Below are positions 15,343-44,806 of a stretch of DNA of 64,000 nt, piece by piece. Under the pieces are notes generated by a model that saw only the letters and a list, made by a program, of their open reading frames with translations, was not told the origin of the DNA and searched no databases. The position numbers and the translations under genes are program-made. Numbering within the stretch: position 1 is the stretch's first letter; every line of letters begins with the position of its first letter. Source of the stretch: Escherichia coli (lineage in GTDB: Bacteria > Pseudomonadota > Gammaproteobacteria > Enterobacterales > Enterobacteriaceae); assembly GCF_013315695.1 (NCBI RefSeq), contig NZ_CP054354.1. One strand, written 5' to 3'.

Positions 15343-15905
15343 CCACTTCGGCTCCCGGCTGCCTGGCGGCATCCGGTCGTCAGGCCCGACTCCGACGGGC
15401 AGCTGCTGGCGCACCCGCCAGTCTCCGCCGAACCCGCTGGCGCGGTTTCGGGCTGCCGCTACGGTCCGATGCGTGAAAACCCGGGCTTGCAGCGACCGTT
15501 CCGGTCGCGCCGCCCCTGTCGCGCCGTGACCTGCGCTCCCTGCACACCTGACGGTGTGTGAGGAAACTGCGCCTGATGGCGCAGCAGTCCTCCCTCCTGC
15601 CGCCCCCCCTGCGGCCTGTTTCCCCGCTGTGGACTTTCCGGGGGGCAGACGTAACCCCCTCCCGTTCCATCTGTCCAGGGTGAGATGCACCGGCCACAAA
15701 ATTTTTAGCCATGAACCCGGCAAAAAATTTTGCGTCCGCCCCCGGACAGCTGCCCCGTGAGGCGGTAAACGGGCCCCCATCGGAAAGGTCCACTGCGGGG
15801 AGAAACCCCTGTGAAGTGGACGGCAGGAGGAGCTTTCGCTCCTCTGAAGGGGCACATGAACGTCCCGTCGCCGGTATCCGGTTTATCTCACATCTTTCAG
15901 TCAGG
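15343..15905. repeat. GC-rich ~560-bp non-coding element, family B copy 1 (Frpo/ssi-like), upstream of ssb
   Basis: Repeated at 21690-22240 and partially at 25230-25600; hairpins such as ctgcgcc-tgat-ggcgcag; ORFs here lie on both strands without RBS. Confidence 0.65.
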
Positions 15906-20649: not shown

Positions 20650-20992
20650 AGGACGTCGCCGCCGGCTCCGCTTTTACCCGGCCATGCGGGGCATGGCCTT
20701 GTGGGTTTTCAGTTATGTGGCCGCCGTGTCGTGTGCGGGCTGTGCCGTGCCTCCATCGTAGCCGGGCTTCTGCGGGCGGGATGCAAGGTAAGATGAACCG
20801 CTGCGGTCACCCGGTCCCTCCTTCCCGTCTGCCGTGATTTTCCGGTCGTTCACCCGCTCAGATTTCGCGGTCTCACCCTCCAACTCCCGCCAGCCGTGTG
20901 CGTCAGGCTGCGGCTTCCCTTGCGCCCTTGCATCCCTGCAGGCCCGGCAAAGATGGAGGCACGGCACCGCCCGGTGTCGCAGAACATGTGAC
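20650..20992. repeat. GC-rich ~340-bp non-coding element, family A copy 2, immediately upstream of ardA
   Basis: Near-identical to 13701-14040 over ~330 bp. Confidence 0.7.
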
Positions 20993-21008
20993 TATGGAGG
21001 ATTCGGGA

Positions 21009-21509
21009 ATGTCTGTTGTTGCACCTGCTGTATACGTTGGAACCTGGCACAAATACAACTGTGGAAGCATCGCTGGCCGCTGGTTTGACCTGACAACGTT
21101 TGATGATGAACGCGACTTTTTCGCCGCCTGCCGTGCCCTTCACCAGGATGAAACCGACCCGGAACTGATGTTTCAGGATTATGAGGGATTCCCGGGGAAT
21201 ATGGCCTCTGAATGCCATATCAACTGGGCCTGGGTTGAAGGCTTCCGCCAGGCGCGGGATGAAGGCTGCGAAGAGGCTTATCGTCTCTGGGTGGATGATA
21301 CCGGTGAGACGGATTTTGACAGCTTCCGCGATGCCTGGTGGGGCGAGGCTGACAGTGAGGAGGCTTTTGCGGTTGAGTTCGTCAGTGATACCGGCCTGCT
21401 GGCTGACGTGCCGGAGACGGTGGCGCTCTATTTTGACTATGAGGCGTATGCGCGGGATTTATTCCTGGACTCCTTCACCTTTATTGACGGTCATGTGTTC
21501 CGTCGGTGA
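21009..21509 (+). CDS. ardA: Antirestriction protein ArdA
   Basis: 166 aa from ATG at 21009 (GGAGG RBS 20996-21000); MSVVAPAVYVGTWHKYNCGSIAGRWFDLTTFDDE and very acidic C-terminal half typical of ArdA DNA mimics. Confidence 0.85.
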   Translation: MSVVAPAVYVGTWHKYNCGSIAGRWFDLTTFDDERDFFAACRALHQDETDPELMFQDYEGFPGNMASECHINWAWVEGFRQARDEGCEEAYRLWVDDTGETDFDSFRDAWWGEADSEEAFAVEFVSDTGLLADVPETVALYFDYEAYARDLFLDSFTFIDGHVFRR

Positions 21510-21689: not shown

Positions 21690-22240
21690 CCTTCGGCTCC
21701 CGGCTGCCTGGCGGCATCCGGTCGTCAGGCCCGACTCCGACAGGCAGCTGCTGGCGCACCCGCCAGTCTCCGCCGAACCCGCTGGCGCGGTTTCGGGCTG
21801 CCGCTACGGTCCGATGTCTGAAAAACCAGGCTTGCAGCGACCGTTCCGGTCGCGCCGCCTCTGTCGCGCCGTGACCTGCGCTCCCTGCACACCTGACGGT
21901 GTGTAAGGAAACTGCGCCTGATGGCGCAGTTGTCTGCCCTTCCGCCGCCCCCCCTGCGGCCTGTTTCCCCGCTGTGGACTTTCCGGGGGCTGAAGCGGCC
22001 ACAACACGTTTCAGCCGTCCAGGGGAGAGATGTACCAGCCACAAAACTTTTTGCCGCAAGCGTCAAAAACTTTTGCGTCTGCCCCCGGACAACTGCCCCG
22101 TGCCGTGGCAGTCGCTGCCCCATCGGAAAGGTCCACTGCGGGGAGAAACCCCGAAGAAGTGGACGGCAGAAGGGGCTTTCGCCCCTCCGGGGGAGCAACC
22201 GGTCGGCCCGGCGACCTGATTCAGCAGAAGGAGACGTTTT
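21690..22240. repeat. GC-rich non-coding element, family B copy 2 (Frpo/ssi-like)
   Basis: Aligns with 15343-15905 along most of its length; ends at the RBS of the 22242 gene. Confidence 0.65.
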
Positions 22241-22241
22241 C

Positions 22242-22676
22242 ATGACAGTCAGCAGCACGATTTCCGTTTTTTGCCGCGACGGGGTGTTCCGTACCGTTTA
22301 CTGCCACCTGCACGGTGAGCCGACCTGGAACGGTCGCATCCTGCATACCCACTATGCCACCGGTCAGCAGGCCGAAGCCCTGGTTGAACACGGTGATATC
22401 CGTTGCCTCGGTCCCCGTTGCGACAAACCCGCCGGGCATACGCTTCAGAACCCGGTGGACGGTGTGACGGCTTATTACGGACGTGACAGTGGTTTCCGGA
22501 TGGACAGTGAGGCGCGTGAGTACCGTTCTTTCAGGGAGGCCATCGCCACGGAAAGCACTGAAGAGGTGCGCTTCCATTATGTGTTCATCGACGGCTACTG
22601 GAAGGTGATGTACCGCACGCCGGAAGGCTGGAAGATGAAAGCGCTCGCGCTGGCACTGCGTCGCTGTCCGGAATGA
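22242..22676 (+). CDS. Hypothetical leading-region protein (144 aa)
   Basis: AAGGAG RBS then ATG at 22242; followed by hairpin terminator gcagggcgataaaccctgc (22682-22700). Confidence 0.55.
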   Translation: MTVSSTISVFCRDGVFRTVYCHLHGEPTWNGRILHTHYATGQQAEALVEHGDIRCLGPRCDKPAGHTLQNPVDGVTAYYGRDSGFRMDSEAREYRSFREAIATESTEEVRFHYVFIDGYWKVMYRTPEGWKMKALALALRRCPE

Positions 22677-22768: not shown

Positions 22769-23035
22769 ATGAGACCATCAATTATCTTCGCAACCGCCGA
22801 GTATGTAAAGCGTCTGCGAGAAGAGTGCCTGCGGGAGAACAAACCCCTGCACCGCCATACCCGCTTCAGACGCCAGGAACTGGCACCGGATGAGATTAAC
22901 CCGGACGTCCTGGCGATGGGCGGTCATATCGCCAGACGCTGCAGTGAGCAGAAGCGGGTACGTATCCCCGCCATGAAAGTCAGCGAATGGGGCCACCTGC
23001 TCCGCGCGCTTGAAATTGAACGGGTCTGTCACTGA
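22769..23035 (+). CDS. Hypothetical basic protein (88 aa)
   Basis: ATG at 22769 after ctatggagattatgcc; Arg/His-rich. Confidence 0.45.
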   Translation: MRPSIIFATAEYVKRLREECLRENKPLHRHTRFRRQELAPDEINPDVLAMGGHIARRCSEQKRVRIPAMKVSEWGHLLRALEIERVCH

Positions 23036-23211
23036 TTAACCCCTGCCGTCTGCCTGTGCAGGTGGCAGGATGTGTTCAGGTACTTTACCAGGAGGAACCG
23101 TGAGCAAGATGAAAAACATCACGACGTCTGTGTTGCATGGTGTCTCCACAAAAAACAGAAAAGGGAAACAGATTCTCTTTCATTCAGGGCCCGGGAGGGC
23201 TGGAGATAACA

Positions 23212-23601
23212 ATGAAGTCTTGTTTTGATACTGACAAAGCTTTTCATATGTCTTTTGATGAAGTCACTTTCAACGCTGACAGAATTCGCTCAAAACTGGA
23301 ACTATTATCCGAAGAACTAATGCCCCGTTGTGGTCTTGTTTATGAGCTATATCAGCGACGTTTGAGTGCTGCTATTGATAATTTTGTGGCCACATTGCCG
23401 ACAGAACAACATCTACTGGTCCTGGAACTGGCCCGTGAGGAGTTTGATTACCTTTCCGCAGAAGAGATTGCTGAAGAAATACGCCGTGACTCAGAACGCG
23501 GCTATTGTTGTCATGGCTTTGAACGCAATTGCTGTCCTCTCGGTTGTGGGGATTTGGGCGATGATTGCTGCGATGCTGCTGATTTGATGGAGGAACCGTG
23601 A
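23212..23601 (+). CDS. Hypothetical acidic protein with Cys-rich C-terminus (129 aa)
   Basis: GGAG RBS 23202-23205; C-terminal CCHGFERNCCPLGCGDLGDDCCD. Confidence 0.5.
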   Translation: MKSCFDTDKAFHMSFDEVTFNADRIRSKLELLSEELMPRCGLVYELYQRRLSAAIDNFVATLPTEQHLLVLELAREEFDYLSAEEIAEEIRRDSERGYCCHGFERNCCPLGCGDLGDDCCDAADLMEEP

Positions 23602-24512
23602 GTAAGAAGAAAAACACCACAACGCCCACGCCGCATGATGCCGCGTTCCGGTCGTTCCTGGCGAATCCCGACGTCGCCAGAGATTTTCTGGAACTGCATC
23701 TTCCTGCGGAGTACCGGCAGTTGTGCGACCTGTCCACGCTGAAGCTGGAACCCGCCACCTTTGTAGAGCCGGACCTGCATCAGTACGCCAGCGATATCCT
23801 CTGGAGCGTGAAAACCACCGGGGGTGAAGACGGCTATGTTTATACGCTCATCGAGCACCAGAGCACAGAAAATCTGTACATGCCTTTTCGCATGTTACGC
23901 TACAGTGTGGCGGCGATGCAGAGACATCTGGAGCAGCACAAAACGTTGCCACTGGTGATTCCGGTGCTGTTCTATCACGGTGAGCGCAGCCCGTACCCGT
24001 ACAGCATGAACTGGCTGGACTGTTTTGAGAATCCGGCACTTGCGGCTAAAATATACACAAAACCGTTTCCGCTGGTTGATATCACTGTCGTTGATGACAA
24101 TGAAATCATGAATCATCGCCGGATGGCCGCACTGACGCTGCTGATGAAGCATATCCGCCATCGTGACATGATGGAGCTGCTGGACAAACTCCCGCAGGTC
24201 ATGGTGGAAATTTCAGACGAGCAGGTGCGTGTTCTGATTCATTACATCGTTAACGCAGGGGACTCTGTATCACCGGAATTTATGCGGGCGCTGGCTGAGC
24301 GTCTGCCGCAGCATGAGGATAAACTGATGACTATCGCAGAACGTCTTGAGCAAAAAGGTCGCCAGGAAGGCAGGATGGAAGGACGCATGGAAGGAGCGCT
24401 TGAAAAAGCCCTGGCTATTGCGTGCCAGCTTCAGAAAATGGGGATGACGCCGGAGCAGATTAAGCAGGCTACCGGACTTTCCGATGACGAACTGAAGAAA
24501 ATCACTCACTGA
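23598..24512 (+). CDS. Rpn (YhgA-like) recombination-promoting nuclease, PD-(D/E)xK family
   Basis: 304 aa, GTG start after GGAGG; N-terminal PHDAAFRSFLANPDVARDFLELHLP and C-terminal QEGRMEGRMEG...MGMTPEQIKQATGLSDDELKK are characteristic of Rpn proteins as recalled. Confidence 0.8.
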   Translation: MSKKKNTTTPTPHDAAFRSFLANPDVARDFLELHLPAEYRQLCDLSTLKLEPATFVEPDLHQYASDILWSVKTTGGEDGYVYTLIEHQSTENLYMPFRMLRYSVAAMQRHLEQHKTLPLVIPVLFYHGERSPYPYSMNWLDCFENPALAAKIYTKPFPLVDITVVDDNEIMNHRRMAALTLLMKHIRHRDMMELLDKLPQVMVEISDEQVRVLIHYIVNAGDSVSPEFMRALAERLPQHEDKLMTIAERLEQKGRQEGRMEGRMEGALEKALAIACQLQKMGMTPEQIKQATGLSDDELKKITH

Positions 24513-24519
24513 TGAGAAC

Positions 24520-24552
24520 CGCAAAGCCCGGCAAAATCCCGGGCTTTTTTGC
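24520..24552 (+). terminator. Rho-independent terminator after rpn
   Basis: aaagcccggcaaaatcccgggctttttt: GC stem plus T-run. Confidence 0.6.
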
Positions 24553-24574
24553 CTGCAGGAGCAGAGCAAACAGC

Positions 24575-24745
24575 ATGACGATTGCAGAACGTCTTATACA
24601 GAAAGGTTTTGAAAAAGGTGCTCTTGAAGTGGCGCGGGAAATAGCCTGCCGGCTGCGGGATATGGGCTGGACGCCGGAACGGATTCAGGAGGCGACCGGA
24701 CTTTCCGGTGAAGAACTGAAAAAGCTGTTTCCTGATGAGCAGTAG
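24575..24745 (+). CDS. Free-standing Rpn C-terminal-domain paralogue (RpnS-like small protein, 56 aa)
   Basis: MTIAERLIQKGFEKGALEVAREIACRLRDMGWTPERIQEATGLSGEELKK parallels the rpn C-terminus MTIAERLEQKG...; begins after the rpn terminator; weak RBS. Confidence 0.45.
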   Translation: MTIAERLIQKGFEKGALEVAREIACRLRDMGWTPERIQEATGLSGEELKKLFPDEQ

Positions 24746-25140: not shown

Positions 25141-25229
25141 GATGTCGTGCTGTTTTCTCTGTTTTCACCTGTGCGGGAGTGGGTGTCAGTGACCACCACA
25201 TGCCATTGTTGTGCCGTCGTTTTTCTTCA

Positions 25230-25600
25230 GTCGCGCCGGATGCAGCGCTCCCTGCACACCTTACGGTGTGTAAGGCCACTGCGCCTGATGGCGCAGCTGT
25301 CTCTGCCTGTCTGCCGCCGCACTGCGGCCTGTTCTCCGCAGACGGACTTTCCGGGGAACATACACGACCACATCCCGTTTCAGTTATCCAGGGGAGAGAT
25401 GTACCAGCCACAAAACTTTTTGCCGCAGGCGTCAAAAACTTTTGCGTCTGCCCCCGGACAACTGCCCCGTGACGTGGTGAGCATCCCCCGTCGGAAAGGT
25501 CCACTGCGGGGAAATCCCCGAAGACCCGGACGGCAGAAGGAGCTTCGCTCCTCCGGGAAATGACCTGGCTGACCCGGCAGTCGTGACGATGAGGAGACAA
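25230..25600. repeat. GC-rich non-coding element, family B copy 3 (partial, 3' ~370 bp)
   Basis: Aligns with the 3' part of 15343-15905 and 21690-22240; ends at the RBS of the 25605 gene. Confidence 0.6.
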
Positions 25601-35819: not shown

Positions 35820-36010
35820 AATAATCTACGGACAGATTACTTTCTGTACTTCCAGAGCCTGTTTCTGTGAGTCAAACATGAGCTGGTTTTTACCGACTAC
35901 ACCCAAGTAAATATATTCGATATCTCCCATTTGCCGTATTTTCGTAAAATTCAACAGGAAATATTCAACGGGAGTGAGAGAACTGCTGTCCGGGGAGGAG
36001 GTACAGACGC

Positions 36011-36044
36011 AAAAAAACCGACTGGTGAGGCCGGTTTTTTTGCG
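36011..36044. terminator. Hairpin with flanking A/T runs at the start of type I module 2
   Basis: aaaaaaaccgactggtgaggccggttttttt, paralogue of 35282-35312. Confidence 0.55.
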
Positions 36045-36105
36045 ATTCCGGATCGAAGTTGGTAGCCCTGACCGGAAGATAACTGCCTATAACTGACTAT
36101 GAAAT
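36045..36105 (-). ncRNA. Predicted antisense sRNA for module 2
   Basis: 36071-36101 repeats 36254-36292 (toxin 2 leader) at ~26/30; repeat sequence differs from module 1. Confidence 0.3.
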
Positions 36106-39420: not shown

Positions 39421-39749
39421 GATGTGTCCTTGTTTTTTATTATTTTGCATTTCAGAAAATAACACGATGCCTGCAGCCCGGAAAACAGATGTGTGCACAC
39501 GTAGTCACTTTCCGGCTTTATTTCTGTCCCTGACACAAAATACGTGGTGGCATGAAAAGGATTGTGGCGGACTGGAAAACGATTAGAATAGCGGCGGGCG
39601 CTTGAGGCTGTATGCCGAAAGCGTTTTGTGGACGGCATGTAGCAGAAAGCCCCAGGCGATTTTTTTATCAATCAACCCAGGGCCCACTGTAATGCCTCAA
39701 CAACATTATAGTAGCCCGATGACGGCCGAAAGGCAATGGAGGGGCTGCG

Positions 39750-39902
39750 ATGCCACAACGAACGTTTTTAATGATGTTAATCGTCGTCTGTGTGACGATA
39801 CTGTGTTTTGTCTGGATGGTGAGGGATTCGCTTTGCGGATTTCGTATCGAGCAGGGAAATACGGTGCTTGTGGCAACGTTAGCCTACGAAGTTAAACGTT
39901 AA
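39750..39902 (+). CDS. Hok/Gef-family type I toxin (PndA-like, 50 aa) with overlapping mok-like frame
   Basis: MPQRTFLMMLIVVCVTILCFVWMVRDSLCGFRIEQGNTVLVATLAYEVKR fits the Hok pattern (...R.SLC....G...V.A.LAYE.K); overlapping ORF 39692-39895 ends 7 nt before the hok stop, as mok does; below the ORF-track cutoff. Confidence 0.7.
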   Translation: MPQRTFLMMLIVVCVTILCFVWMVRDSLCGFRIEQGNTVLVATLAYEVKR

Positions 39903-42640: not shown

Positions 42641-44806
42641 TTATTGTTTTATTCCGTCTTTATCATCTCTATTAATATTTTTCAGTTTTTCTTCACGAAC
42701 GCCAGGTGTTCTGCGCATATTGGTATTACCTCCGGCAATAATATCTTTGACTGAAGAAACCATATTCCCCAGCATATTAACACCGTCACGTCCGCCCAGA
42801 AAATTAATTACATGGTCAGGCAGATAAGCCTGAAGCGCAAAAACGGCTGCAACCAGTGTGGTACAGGCGCGGGCATAAATCATCAAAAATCCCGCCATGC
42901 TGAACACACCCGTCACAGAGTTTATCTGGACATTCATCAGTGCAGCAGCATACAGCGCATTCAGGATTGTGCCGCCGGCCACGATGGCGACTGATGCAAA
43001 AAAGAACCCGAACACCATCAGCAGCGGTCTGATCATGCTGTCTATCAGGTAGATGTAACCGTAAGCGGCTCGGCTTCCCCGGTCCTGACTTGTTCCCAGA
43101 TGGGTGGCGGCCCACAGGGGGCCAGCAGCACATCCAATCAGTACGCTGACTATCCAGTTGCCGATGCCGGTCATCCAGAAGATAAACGGGATAAACGGCA
43201 GGTAAATGGATAACGAAAAACCGGCACAAAACAGCAAAAACAGCAGGAAGTAGAGTGGTGGTGCGGATGCTTCCAGAAAAGCCTTTGCGGCGTCAGATAA
43301 TCCGCTGACGGCATTGACCAGTCGACCAAAAACGGAGTTGCTGCCGGCCGTGGAAAGTACCCTGACGGTGGTATAACCCGCCCAGATGGTTTCGGTCGTA
43401 ACCATGGTGTAATCGCCAATGTTTTTCATTTTTATCAACGGATTTAGTTGATTAGTTGTGGTACCTGTACCGCTCAGATAAGTGGCTGTCCAGTTAGTCA
43501 TTCTTGTTAGGTTAAACCCAATCAATTTTAAGATTGCTGATTGAGGGTCTTGAGTTTTAGATGCGTGGTATTCACTGGCAGAGGTGGCGGTTCCCAGTGC
43601 AGGAGTATACGCTGAGTTCTGCAGCTGTGCCTGGTAAGCCCCCTTGACTTCCTTCAGGAATTCCGTATCCCCGGCTTCGCCCAGTGACGAGACGCCACTC
43701 ACTGTAGGAGCACGGTCGGCCAGTTCAGCCAGTCGCTGGTTGGCGGTGGCAAAGGTCTGGTACCAGGCGCCCAGGGCAACCCAGCCGTAGGTGGTCAGGT
43801 AGGATTTCAGCTGCTCCCTGCGCTCAGTTTCTGCGTTATCTGCCGGCAACGCCTTCTGCACCGTTTCTTCATACCGGTTGGCTGCCTTCTGAATACGGCT
43901 TTCAATATCCGGCAGGTTGCCGTTACCCGTGTCGCGCCGGGTCCGGTATGCCGACACAAATTCCTGCGCCGCGCTGTCCAGGTCACGGAGCATGGTATCC
44001 ATGGCGGAGCGCTGTGCCGTCAGAACCCCCTGATATTCCGTTTCAATGAAGGGATTGAAAAAATGGGCCAGCGCGGACTGCTTGTTACTGCCGTTTCCTT
44101 TCACGGAGAGACTCACACTCCCGCAGGTGGCGCTGCCATTTGAGACGGTGACGGTATATCTGCCATTCTCTGTCCGTGAGGATTCGCTCATGGGCGGCGT
44201 TGATGAACGTGCGGTACGGTTAAAGTCATCGAGGCCCGTATTCATGGCGTGTTTGCACAGTTCCATCTCCAGAATTCCCCGTGCTGCCGTGCGGGTGGAG
44301 ACATGTACTGGCTGTACGGTCATTGAATAGCCTTCAGCAATGTTTTCTGCCGCTGTCTGAACCATGATATTGGCGGAACCGATGCCCATGATGGATGCGC
44401 CCCACAGCATGACCAGTTGCGCCAGACTCCAGCCGGAAGCGGTGGGCACAATCATCAAAAATCCACTCACGACACTGAGTATGCCGACGACGTCCCGTCC
44501 GTTGTTAAAGACACTGCCCTGGTGTCCCGTGCGGACAGCATGACGGATACCAATAAACAGAAACCAGACTATCCCCATCGTGGCGATAATTGCGTTAAAC
44601 ACCATGAACAGGTTGCCAATGATGGTGTTGCTGCTGGCTGTCAGGGGATTTGTGACCACATCACCAAAAATGGTGACCAGTGCCTGGCGCGACAGGTCAT
44701 CCGGATTGGTGGCGGCACTCACAATGTCCTGATAGGTGACGAAAGCCTGTGCAGGTACGGCAGCCAGCGCCAGACCTGCACTCAGTGCTCTGGGTATGAT
44801 TTTCAC
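42641..44806 (-). CDS. traY: TraY, polytopic inner-membrane T4SS protein (DotA-like)
   Basis: 721 aa, signal peptide plus many transmembrane segments; GTG start 5 nt after GGAG. Confidence 0.8.
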   Translation of the reverse strand: MKIIPRALSAGLALAAVPAQAFVTYQDIVSAATNPDDLSRQALVTIFGDVVTNPLTASSNTIIGNLFMVFNAIIATMGIVWFLFIGIRHAVRTGHQGSVFNNGRDVVGILSVVSGFLMIVPTASGWSLAQLVMLWGASIMGIGSANIMVQTAAENIAEGYSMTVQPVHVSTRTAARGILEMELCKHAMNTGLDDFNRTARSSTPPMSESSRTENGRYTVTVSNGSATCGSVSLSVKGNGSNKQSALAHFFNPFIETEYQGVLTAQRSAMDTMLRDLDSAAQEFVSAYRTRRDTGNGNLPDIESRIQKAANRYEETVQKALPADNAETERREQLKSYLTTYGWVALGAWYQTFATANQRLAELADRAPTVSGVSSLGEAGDTEFLKEVKGAYQAQLQNSAYTPALGTATSASEYHASKTQDPQSAILKLIGFNLTRMTNWTATYLSGTGTTTNQLNPLIKMKNIGDYTMVTTETIWAGYTTVRVLSTAGSNSVFGRLVNAVSGLSDAAKAFLEASAPPLYFLLFLLFCAGFSLSIYLPFIPFIFWMTGIGNWIVSVLIGCAAGPLWAATHLGTSQDRGSRAAYGYIYLIDSMIRPLLMVFGFFFASVAIVAGGTILNALYAAALMNVQINSVTGVFSMAGFLMIYARACTTLVAAVFALQAYLPDHVINFLGGRDGVNMLGNMVSSVKDIIAGGNTNMRRTPGVREEKLKNINRDDKDGIKQ

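Follow-up and report, generated by a model that had tools for sequence, protein, structure and literature searches.

The gene analysed here lies in the leading region of an IncI-complex plasmid of Escherichia coli, is homologous to the CcgAII gene of IncN plasmids, encodes a nearly invariant Cys/His motif and is subject to an insertion polymorphism among related plasmids. Judged by its sequence, it is the IncI-complex allele of CcgAII. As a named member of that family the gene was already known, and it is an ordinary backbone gene for the window, by which we mean the whole stretch of 64,000 nucleotides that was analysed. On balance, we favour an explanation in which the product of this allele would hold a single metal ion in a Cys3His knuckle, would be expressed early from the second ssi/Frpo-like repeat upstream of it (ssi2), and would act as a stand-alone protein that binds a host factor.

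The CcgAII family and its allele in the window

The open reading frame is real. It comprises 129 codons plus a stop (a 390-nt CDS; Table 1), is preceded by a GGAG 6 nt upstream of its ATG, and is found as the same CDS in RefSeq and GenBank records; the exactly matching RefSeq CDS is WP_000833767.1 ('hypothetical protein'), annotated on a plasmid that shows 100% identity to the window across the 1.8 kb used as query. The original prediction had translated this frame exactly as we find it, with the product ending in ...RGYCCHGFERNCCPLGCGDLGDDCCDAADLMEEP before the stop codon, and had rightly called that product acidic (pI 4.4, with 29 Asp and Glu against 13 Lys and Arg). The cysteine cluster that it described is likewise present, at a slightly lower count than the eight cysteines in 24 residues claimed for it, since CCHGFERNCCPLGCGDLGDDCCD contains seven cysteines in 23 residues; the whole product has nine, at positions 4, 40, 99, 100, 107, 108, 112, 119 and 120. 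Six-frame translation of the window yields six stop-free 23-residue stretches with at least seven cysteines, against none or one in shuffled sequences, and because five of these lie elsewhere, cysteine density on its own is weak and not diagnostic in this window. We count the cluster of ccgAII as real because it is conserved across homologues. The five other stretches (at 20963 and 38907 on the plus strand, and at 42974, 46641 and 61025 on the minus strand) are short Arg/Cys-rich frames, which, judged by eye, look like off-frame translations of real genes.

The assignment to CcgAII rests on several comparisons. BLASTP aligns the IncN CcgAII (WP_001749971.1; pKM101/R46 type) with the window protein at 60% identity over 93 residues (E 2e-41), and homologues named CcgAII appear among the matches both of tblastn against plasmids and of phmmer against a large protein collection. 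All three signature blocks of CcgAII (CGL-x-YELY-x-RR-LS-x-x-ID, FDY-x-[ST] and C-x-HG-x4-CCP-x-GCG), which are conserved in 143-148 representatives, occur in the window protein. The two proteins have in common the helical core, the C-x-H...CCPLGCGD knuckle and a place just downstream of ardA, whereas the IncN protein is 106 aa long, has a serine at the position of C100 and lacks the DDCCDAADLMEEP tail. The label ccgAII already stands on this CDS in some IncI GenBank records, and a 2013 paper on IncI leading regions also uses that name for the gene (PMC3817090).

The family is wide. About 450 plasmid records carry the gene at 99% identity or more, and when 1.84 billion representatives were searched with a profile built from 20 homologues, at least 393 clusters (50% identity) reached E<=1e-3 and 243 of them E<=1e-10. 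Its hosts extend from Enterobacterales to Xanthomonas, Burkholderiaceae, Desulfogranum and Cytophagales, where it resides on plasmids and on integrative conjugative elements (ICEs). Acidity is a trait of the family as a whole (median pI 4.57, median net charge -8, with 88% of members below pI 5). For the window protein, AlphaFold2 gives low confidence to residues 1-21, then four helices spanning residues 22-95 (pLDDT 90-98), and after these the C-terminal Cys/His knuckle, which is modelled with moderate confidence (pLDDT 76 dropping to 50). CcgAII is thus a protein of about 100 residues, strongly acidic and all-helical, that ends in a short Cys/His knuckle.

No model in Pfam, NCBIfam or PHROG covers the CcgAII domain in the window protein or in ten longer fused relatives (Pfam and NCBIfam taken to E<=1), the sole domain match among those ten being bPH_2 in one fusion. 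Fusions to uncharacterised N- or C-terminal domains occur in several family members (P0084, P0117, P0127 and P0191, the last with bPH_2). A profile search of the PDB gave no match below E 0.2, and a fold search found no solved or viral-predicted structure similar to the CcgAII model. The source names of ten distant homologues are 'hypothetical protein' or blank, bar one evidently spurious 'YhdP', and the label 'cobalamin biosynthesis protein CbiX', which many GenBank records carry, is supported by no Pfam or NCBIfam model and was set aside.

A scan with PADLOC matched residues 31-92 (window 23302-23487) weakly to positions 6-66 of PRTase_III-A, a retron type III-A effector (E 5e-4). This match recurs in nine of 20 close CcgAII members, with a best E of 6e-5 and with the reservation that the matches are not independent, and it is absent in the ten distant members; moreover, the published description of the retron III-A effector has no matching helical domain. 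The similarity is probably compositional. It leaves open that the helical core might stand in a decoy relationship to a defence protein.

Table 1. Position of ccgAII, its conserved parts and its neighbours in the window
Feature	Position	Strand	Basis or remark
ssi2, second ssi/Frpo-like repeat	21691..22213	+	minus strand folds as a long ssDNA hairpin; putative early promoter
ygcA	22242-22676	+	upstream, no family match
ygdA	22769-23035	+	upstream, no family match
498-bp segment with the whole ccgAII gene	23091..23588	+	alignment with a plasmid lacking the segment
Left 52-nt direct repeat, diverged rpn ribosome-binding site and first codons	23091..23142	+	79% identical to the right copy
ccgAII-like ORF	23212..23601	+	129 aa + stop, pI 4.4; translation, AlphaFold2
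Second conserved block, residues 40-56 (CGLVYELYQRRLSAAID), start of helix 2	23329..23379	+	alignment
Knuckle, residues 99-113 (CCHGFERNCCPLGCG)	23506..23550	+	alignment conservation
Acidic tail, residues 114-129 (DLGDDCCDAADLMEEP), IncI-subtype-specific, with non-conserved C119 and C120	23551..23598	+	alignment, indel comparison
Right 52-nt repeat, working ribosome-binding site and 5' end of rpn	23589..23640	+	repeat comparison
rpn/ygdB, Rpn-family (YhgA-like, PF04754) recombination-promoting nuclease	23598..24512	+	family match

The C-terminal Cys/His knuckle

The original prediction had proposed a homologue survey among its checks and would have been refuted by unconserved cysteines, a test that it passes: across 143 aligned representatives, each from a separate 50%-identity cluster, C99, C108 and C112 are invariant (143/143) and H101 is retained in all but one (142/143). 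P109 and G111 are kept in 139 and 142 of the 143, respectively. The core motif, C-x-H-G-x4-(C)-C-P-x-G-C-G, is thus almost invariant, with the ligand pattern C-x-H-x6-C-x3-C, and all family members have at least four Cys/His in the knuckle. At position 107 cysteine is found in 100 of 143 representatives (70%); of the 17 cases in which threonine replaces it, 15 have a cysteine at position 110, so that TCPCGCFE stands in place of CCPxGCGD, which looks like ligand compensation. Elsewhere in the protein, the block at the start of helix 2 retains C40 in 119 of 148 representatives (80%), G41 in 143 and S52 in 124.

The remaining cysteines of the cluster behave differently. C100 is a cysteine in only 11 of 143 representatives, and it is specific to the IncI subtype, as is the terminal pair C119 and C120 in the tail; on this alignment, the 'CC...CC' look of the window protein is partly lineage-specific decoration. 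We propose that C100, C119, C120 and the acidic tail would be a by-product of the IncI-specific gene junction and would lie outside the core mechanism of the family.

This pattern of conservation points to a single four-ligand metal site made of three cysteines and one histidine, in which zinc is most likely the bound metal. Of the suggestion that the cluster serves for metal or Fe-S binding, metal binding is supported by a near-invariant four-ligand motif across a very wide family, although C100, C119 and C120, which give the CC..CC look, are not conserved. Because the conserved ligands are four in number, three Cys and one His, one Zn(II) or Fe ion fits better than a multi-cysteine Fe-S cluster. 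The knuckle would then bind one metal ion, most likely Zn(II), tetrahedrally, and the role of the metal would be structural, with the C-terminus pinned onto the helical bundle.

Known zinc-knuckle and rubredoxin C-P-x-C-G sites are built in a comparable way, from four (near-)invariant ligands in two short pairs, each followed by glycine; in CcgAII the pairs are C-x-H and C-P-x-G-C, and both fall within 14 residues. The second pair of CcgAII differs from theirs, however, in being C-x3-C with an inserted glycine instead of C-x2-C, and one of the four ligands of CcgAII is a histidine. No zinc-finger family model matched CcgAII in Pfam, NCBIfam or the PDB profile search.

The same ligands could conceivably serve iron instead. 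CcgAII would in that case be an Fe-S or redox protein, with a [2Fe-2S] or [4Fe-4S] cluster or a rubredoxin-like iron, acting in sensing, electron transfer or the response to oxidative stress in the new host. Sets of three Cys and one His do bind [2Fe-2S] in the CDGSH (mitoNEET) family, where they occupy about 16 residues, much as in CcgAII; furthermore, the C-P-x-G-C-G half-site is similar to the C-P-x-C-G knuckle of rubredoxin, and this allele has spare cysteines at positions 40, 100, 107, 119 and 120. CDGSH proteins differ, however, in ligand order and spacing, the site of CcgAII is a C-terminal appendix of a helical bundle, and the two share no sequence match. Only four ligands are universally conserved, and their confinement to 14 residues is typical of zinc knuckles; there is no Fe-S family match in Pfam, NCBIfam or the PDB, no recurrent Fe-S assembly or redox partner gene nearby, and the CbiX label lacks the backing of any family model. 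We thus consider an Fe-S or redox role unlikely, and continue with the single metal ion in the Cys3His knuckle as the preferred reading.

The leading region, the ssi2 repeat and the 498-bp segment

The window comes from an IncI-complex plasmid (IncI1/B/O, MOBP, MPF_I) and shows its leading region, with the gene order psiB-psiA, ardA, ygcA, ygdA, ccgAII, rpn/ygdB, a small ORF, ygeA (-), DUF4942/ygfB, yggA (-), nikA and nikB. ardA (20898-21509, +) lies 1.7 kb upstream of ccgAII, and nikA (27107, +) with oriT lies 3.5 kb downstream, so that ccgAII is the sixth ORF from oriT and is directed toward it, as leading genes are. Many GenBank records label ygcA 'post-segregation killing protein PndC', which no family model supports. 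Matches above the Rfam gathering threshold to the sok antitoxin RNA (39596-39752, +; 124.7 bits) and to the AgrB antisense RNA (36009-36096, -; 47.7 bits) suggest that other parts of the plasmid hold small-RNA loci of the hok/sok and AgrB types.

The original prediction regarded the gene as unusual cargo for a leading region, and this was not borne out: the name CcgAII was first given to a gene next to ardA in the leading region of IncN plasmids, and the family figures as number 65, with 715 members, among the 'Top 100 leading region families' of Samuel & Burstein (Nature 2024, PMC11541004, supplementary file 3). In that study its enrichment in leading regions has an FDR p of 1.5e-229 and its median position is the fifth ORF from oriT; the family is listed there as uncharacterised, and neither DIAMOND nor Foldseek matched it to the anti-CRISPR or anti-restriction sets. 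Among the plasmid records with a CcgAII homologue, 1126 of 1206 (93%) are predicted to be conjugative.

The IncN order is ardA-ccgAI-ccgAII, and the name 'ccg' comes from CUP (conserved upstream)-controlled gene, after a repeat promoter that goes with ArdK/ArdR. The IncN gene is preceded by ccgAI and by the CUP promoter, whereas the window has neither ccgAI nor a CUP element (no match to the CUP core in the window with up to 3 mismatches); unlike its IncN relative, the window gene lies downstream of a putative ssDNA promoter of the ssi/Frpo type, and its 3' end runs into the ribosome-binding site of rpn. Control by CUP is a feature of IncN plasmids, not of the CcgAII protein family.

The acidity of CcgAII makes DNA binding less likely and speaks for contacts with proteins or for mimicry of nucleic acids, and one form of the latter would be an anti-restriction DNA mimic that blocks type I restriction-modification enzymes as ArdA and Ocr do. 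Apart from acidity throughout the family, this reading is favoured by the position beside ardA in both IncI and IncN plasmids and near an ArdB-type gene in Proteus, where a contig has the CcgAII homologue close to Arc-like and ArdB-type antirestriction genes. It also has names on its side, 'antirestriction' in PMC3817090 and 'Anti-restriction CcgAII' in the table of Samuel & Burstein (PMC11541004). The former label, like that of 'prevention of RecA overproduction', is an annotation without assays, and we found no functional study or restriction-relief assay of CcgAII in the searchable literature. Proteins of the ArdA/Ocr type are, like CcgAII, small, strongly acidic, encoded in leading regions (ardA being a neighbour of the window gene) and made early after entry, which for CcgAII is a prediction; ArdA has no metal site, however, and CcgAII shows no sequence or fold similarity to known anti-restriction proteins (ArdA, ArdB/KlcA, ArdC, Ocr) or to anti-CRISPR proteins. 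A DNA-mimicking role thus seems to us quite unlikely, and the binding of a host factor remains the reading that we prefer.

As to when the gene would be expressed, three ssi/Frpo-like repeats (15346-15870, 21691-22213 and 25227-25477) divide the leading region into cassettes; three such repeats in IncI leading regions were also noted in PMC3817090. Within ssi2, the minus strand of 21780-22140 folds as ssDNA far better than shuffled sequences do (z = -7.9), and no sigma-70-like site was found on the plus strand between ssi2 and ccgAII. The IncI plasmid of the O104:H4 outbreak strain, which we take to be pESBL, has the same gene in the same place. According to PMC12672017, ssi1-3 of pESBL are ssDNA promoters, as established by RNA-seq and 5' RACE, and their operons are induced up to ~500-fold within 15 min of mating; the same paper adds that the induction is not seen for every leading-region gene. 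By analogy, we infer that ssi2 may be the early promoter of an operon ygcA-ygdA-ccgAII-rpn. ccgAII would then have no dsDNA promoter of its own; it would share a transcript from ssi2 with ygcA, ygdA and rpn, made within minutes of the arrival of the plasmid strand in the recipient.

The gene was also predicted to sit in an insertion beside rpn, which holds for ccgAII alone: it is contained in a 498-bp indel relative to most IncI plasmids, and rpn is present in both forms. By record counts, the segment occurs in 509 of 1635 IncI-complex plasmids (~31%), and about 1100 match both flanks and miss roughly 0.5 kb; an alignment with one plasmid lacking ccgAII sets the extra segment at exactly 498 bp. 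At its left end, the diverged copy of the 52-nt repeat opens a 42-codon stub ORF (GTG 23100 to 23228) that overlaps the ccgAII ATG, and at its right end the last three codons and the stop of ccgAII are read from the rpn ribosome-binding-site repeat, with the stop overlapping the rpn GTG start (GTGA). Variant P0005 (91% identical) encodes 171 aa, with the stub and ccgAII joined in one reading frame. An insertion, or a deletion between the repeats, would be expected to give the same picture. A joint insertion of rpn and ccgAII was rejected, as rpn is present in plasmids without ccgAII and belongs to the backbone. Given that some 69% of IncI-complex plasmids are without ccgAII, the gene is therefore dispensable for transfer between ordinary hosts.

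Downstream of rpn, a 77-aa ORF (24512-24745, +) begins at the stop codon of rpn and repeats, as a gene of its own, the C-terminal ~60 residues of Rpn (58% identical to Rpn residues 244-302, E 1e-17; match to the C-terminus of TIGR01784, E 2e-7). The duplication is visible at the DNA level as the repeats 24327-24499 and 24575-24723, and the ORF is kept in IncI plasmids whether or not they carry ccgAII. Rpn genes are reported to harbour a small internal product, the C-terminal antitoxin RpnS; in the window that domain exists a second time, as a separate gene.

The junction with rpn also suggests another role, namely that ccgAII would encode an accessory, a regulator or an antitoxin-like partner of the downstream Rpn nuclease and would be translationally coupled to it. 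The overlap of the ccgAII stop with the rpn start would suit such a role, as would an insertion placed exactly at the rpn ribosome-binding site and flanked by the duplicated 5' end of rpn. Against it, the same rpn occurs in the roughly 69% of IncI-complex plasmids that do without ccgAII, no rpn adjoins the ccgAII homologues of IncN plasmids or of any of the 13 other diverse loci examined, and rpn has its own C-terminal domain copy, separately encoded downstream. A partnership with Rpn is thus very improbable, and the preferred reading is again that of a protein acting by itself.

Possible roles of CcgAII in plasmid establishment

In the model that we favour, CcgAII would act alone, with no conserved partner gene. 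While the plasmid becomes established, it would probably bind some host factor of wide conservation and either neutralise or modulate it, much as anti-defence or anti-stress proteins do. Early expression, independence of partners and binding to a conserved host factor are thus our best guess. It is consistent with the outcome of an all-against-all BLAST of the neighbours in 15 loci, in which no obligate partner gene emerged; the only neighbours that recur are SSB (in 4 loci), ParA-like genes (3), ArdA (2) and topoisomerase III (2).

The distant homologues in conjugative elements open a further line of thought, as they adjoin genes for TraC/TraU/TraG, topoisomerase III, a TraI domain, AcaB, a DEAD-box helicase and DUF3577/DUF3275. 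Distant homologues in Betaproteobacteria and Burkholderiaceae MAGs occupy other positions (L020 5575-6309 and L017 5995-6483, respectively), and one with a C-terminal extension overlaps the end of a 656-aa DEAD-box helicase gene. Another is placed within a type IV secretion operon, with traC and traU on either side, which does not fit a strict leading-region role. It is conceivable on these grounds that CcgAII is an accessory of the conjugation machinery, acting in the donor with the type IV secretion system or the relaxosome, or that it is a protein translocated into the recipient: besides the homologue between traC and traU, others adjoin helicase, topoisomerase III or TraI-domain genes, and the IncI allele ends in an additional tail rich in Glu and Asp. 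This tail is reminiscent of the acidic secretion signals of the Dot/Icm type, which is a speculative comparison. The position of the gene relative to the transfer genes is not fixed, however, no transfer gene recurs as its neighbour, and most IncI plasmids do without it; the acidic tail, for its part, stems from the gene junction and is absent in the rest of the family. We therefore hold a role in the transfer machinery, or translocation, to be very doubtful.

Finally, that ccgAII might be a chance ORF or a non-functional remnant, a thought prompted by the Cys-rich stretches that off-frame translations of the window often give, is refuted by conservation, since hundreds of diverged homologues preserve its reading frame, length and motif, and the start has a good ribosome-binding site.

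A broader view, which we offer tentatively as a possibility, is that CcgAII represents a widespread family, with its at least 393 clusters ranging from Proteobacteria to Bacteroidota, of metal-dependent effectors with which conjugative elements would achieve establishment or anti-defence. Their fold and their C-x-H...C-P-x-G-C site would be unlike any solved, and their conserved host target would be new for plasmids.

CcgAII is among the hundred commonest gene families of plasmid leading regions. Its function is a tractable problem, as the part that is invariant across the family is a Cys3His four-ligand knuckle on a four-helix acidic core, no partner gene is needed, and natural IncI plasmids exist with and without the clean 498-bp cassette. 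Taken together, the invariant knuckle, the stand-alone gene and the natural indel offer point mutants at defined sites, an assay for metal, and pairs of plasmids that are near-isogenic. If CcgAII disarms a host function in the first minutes of conjugation, it would be a new player in the spread of IncI and IncN resistance plasmids.
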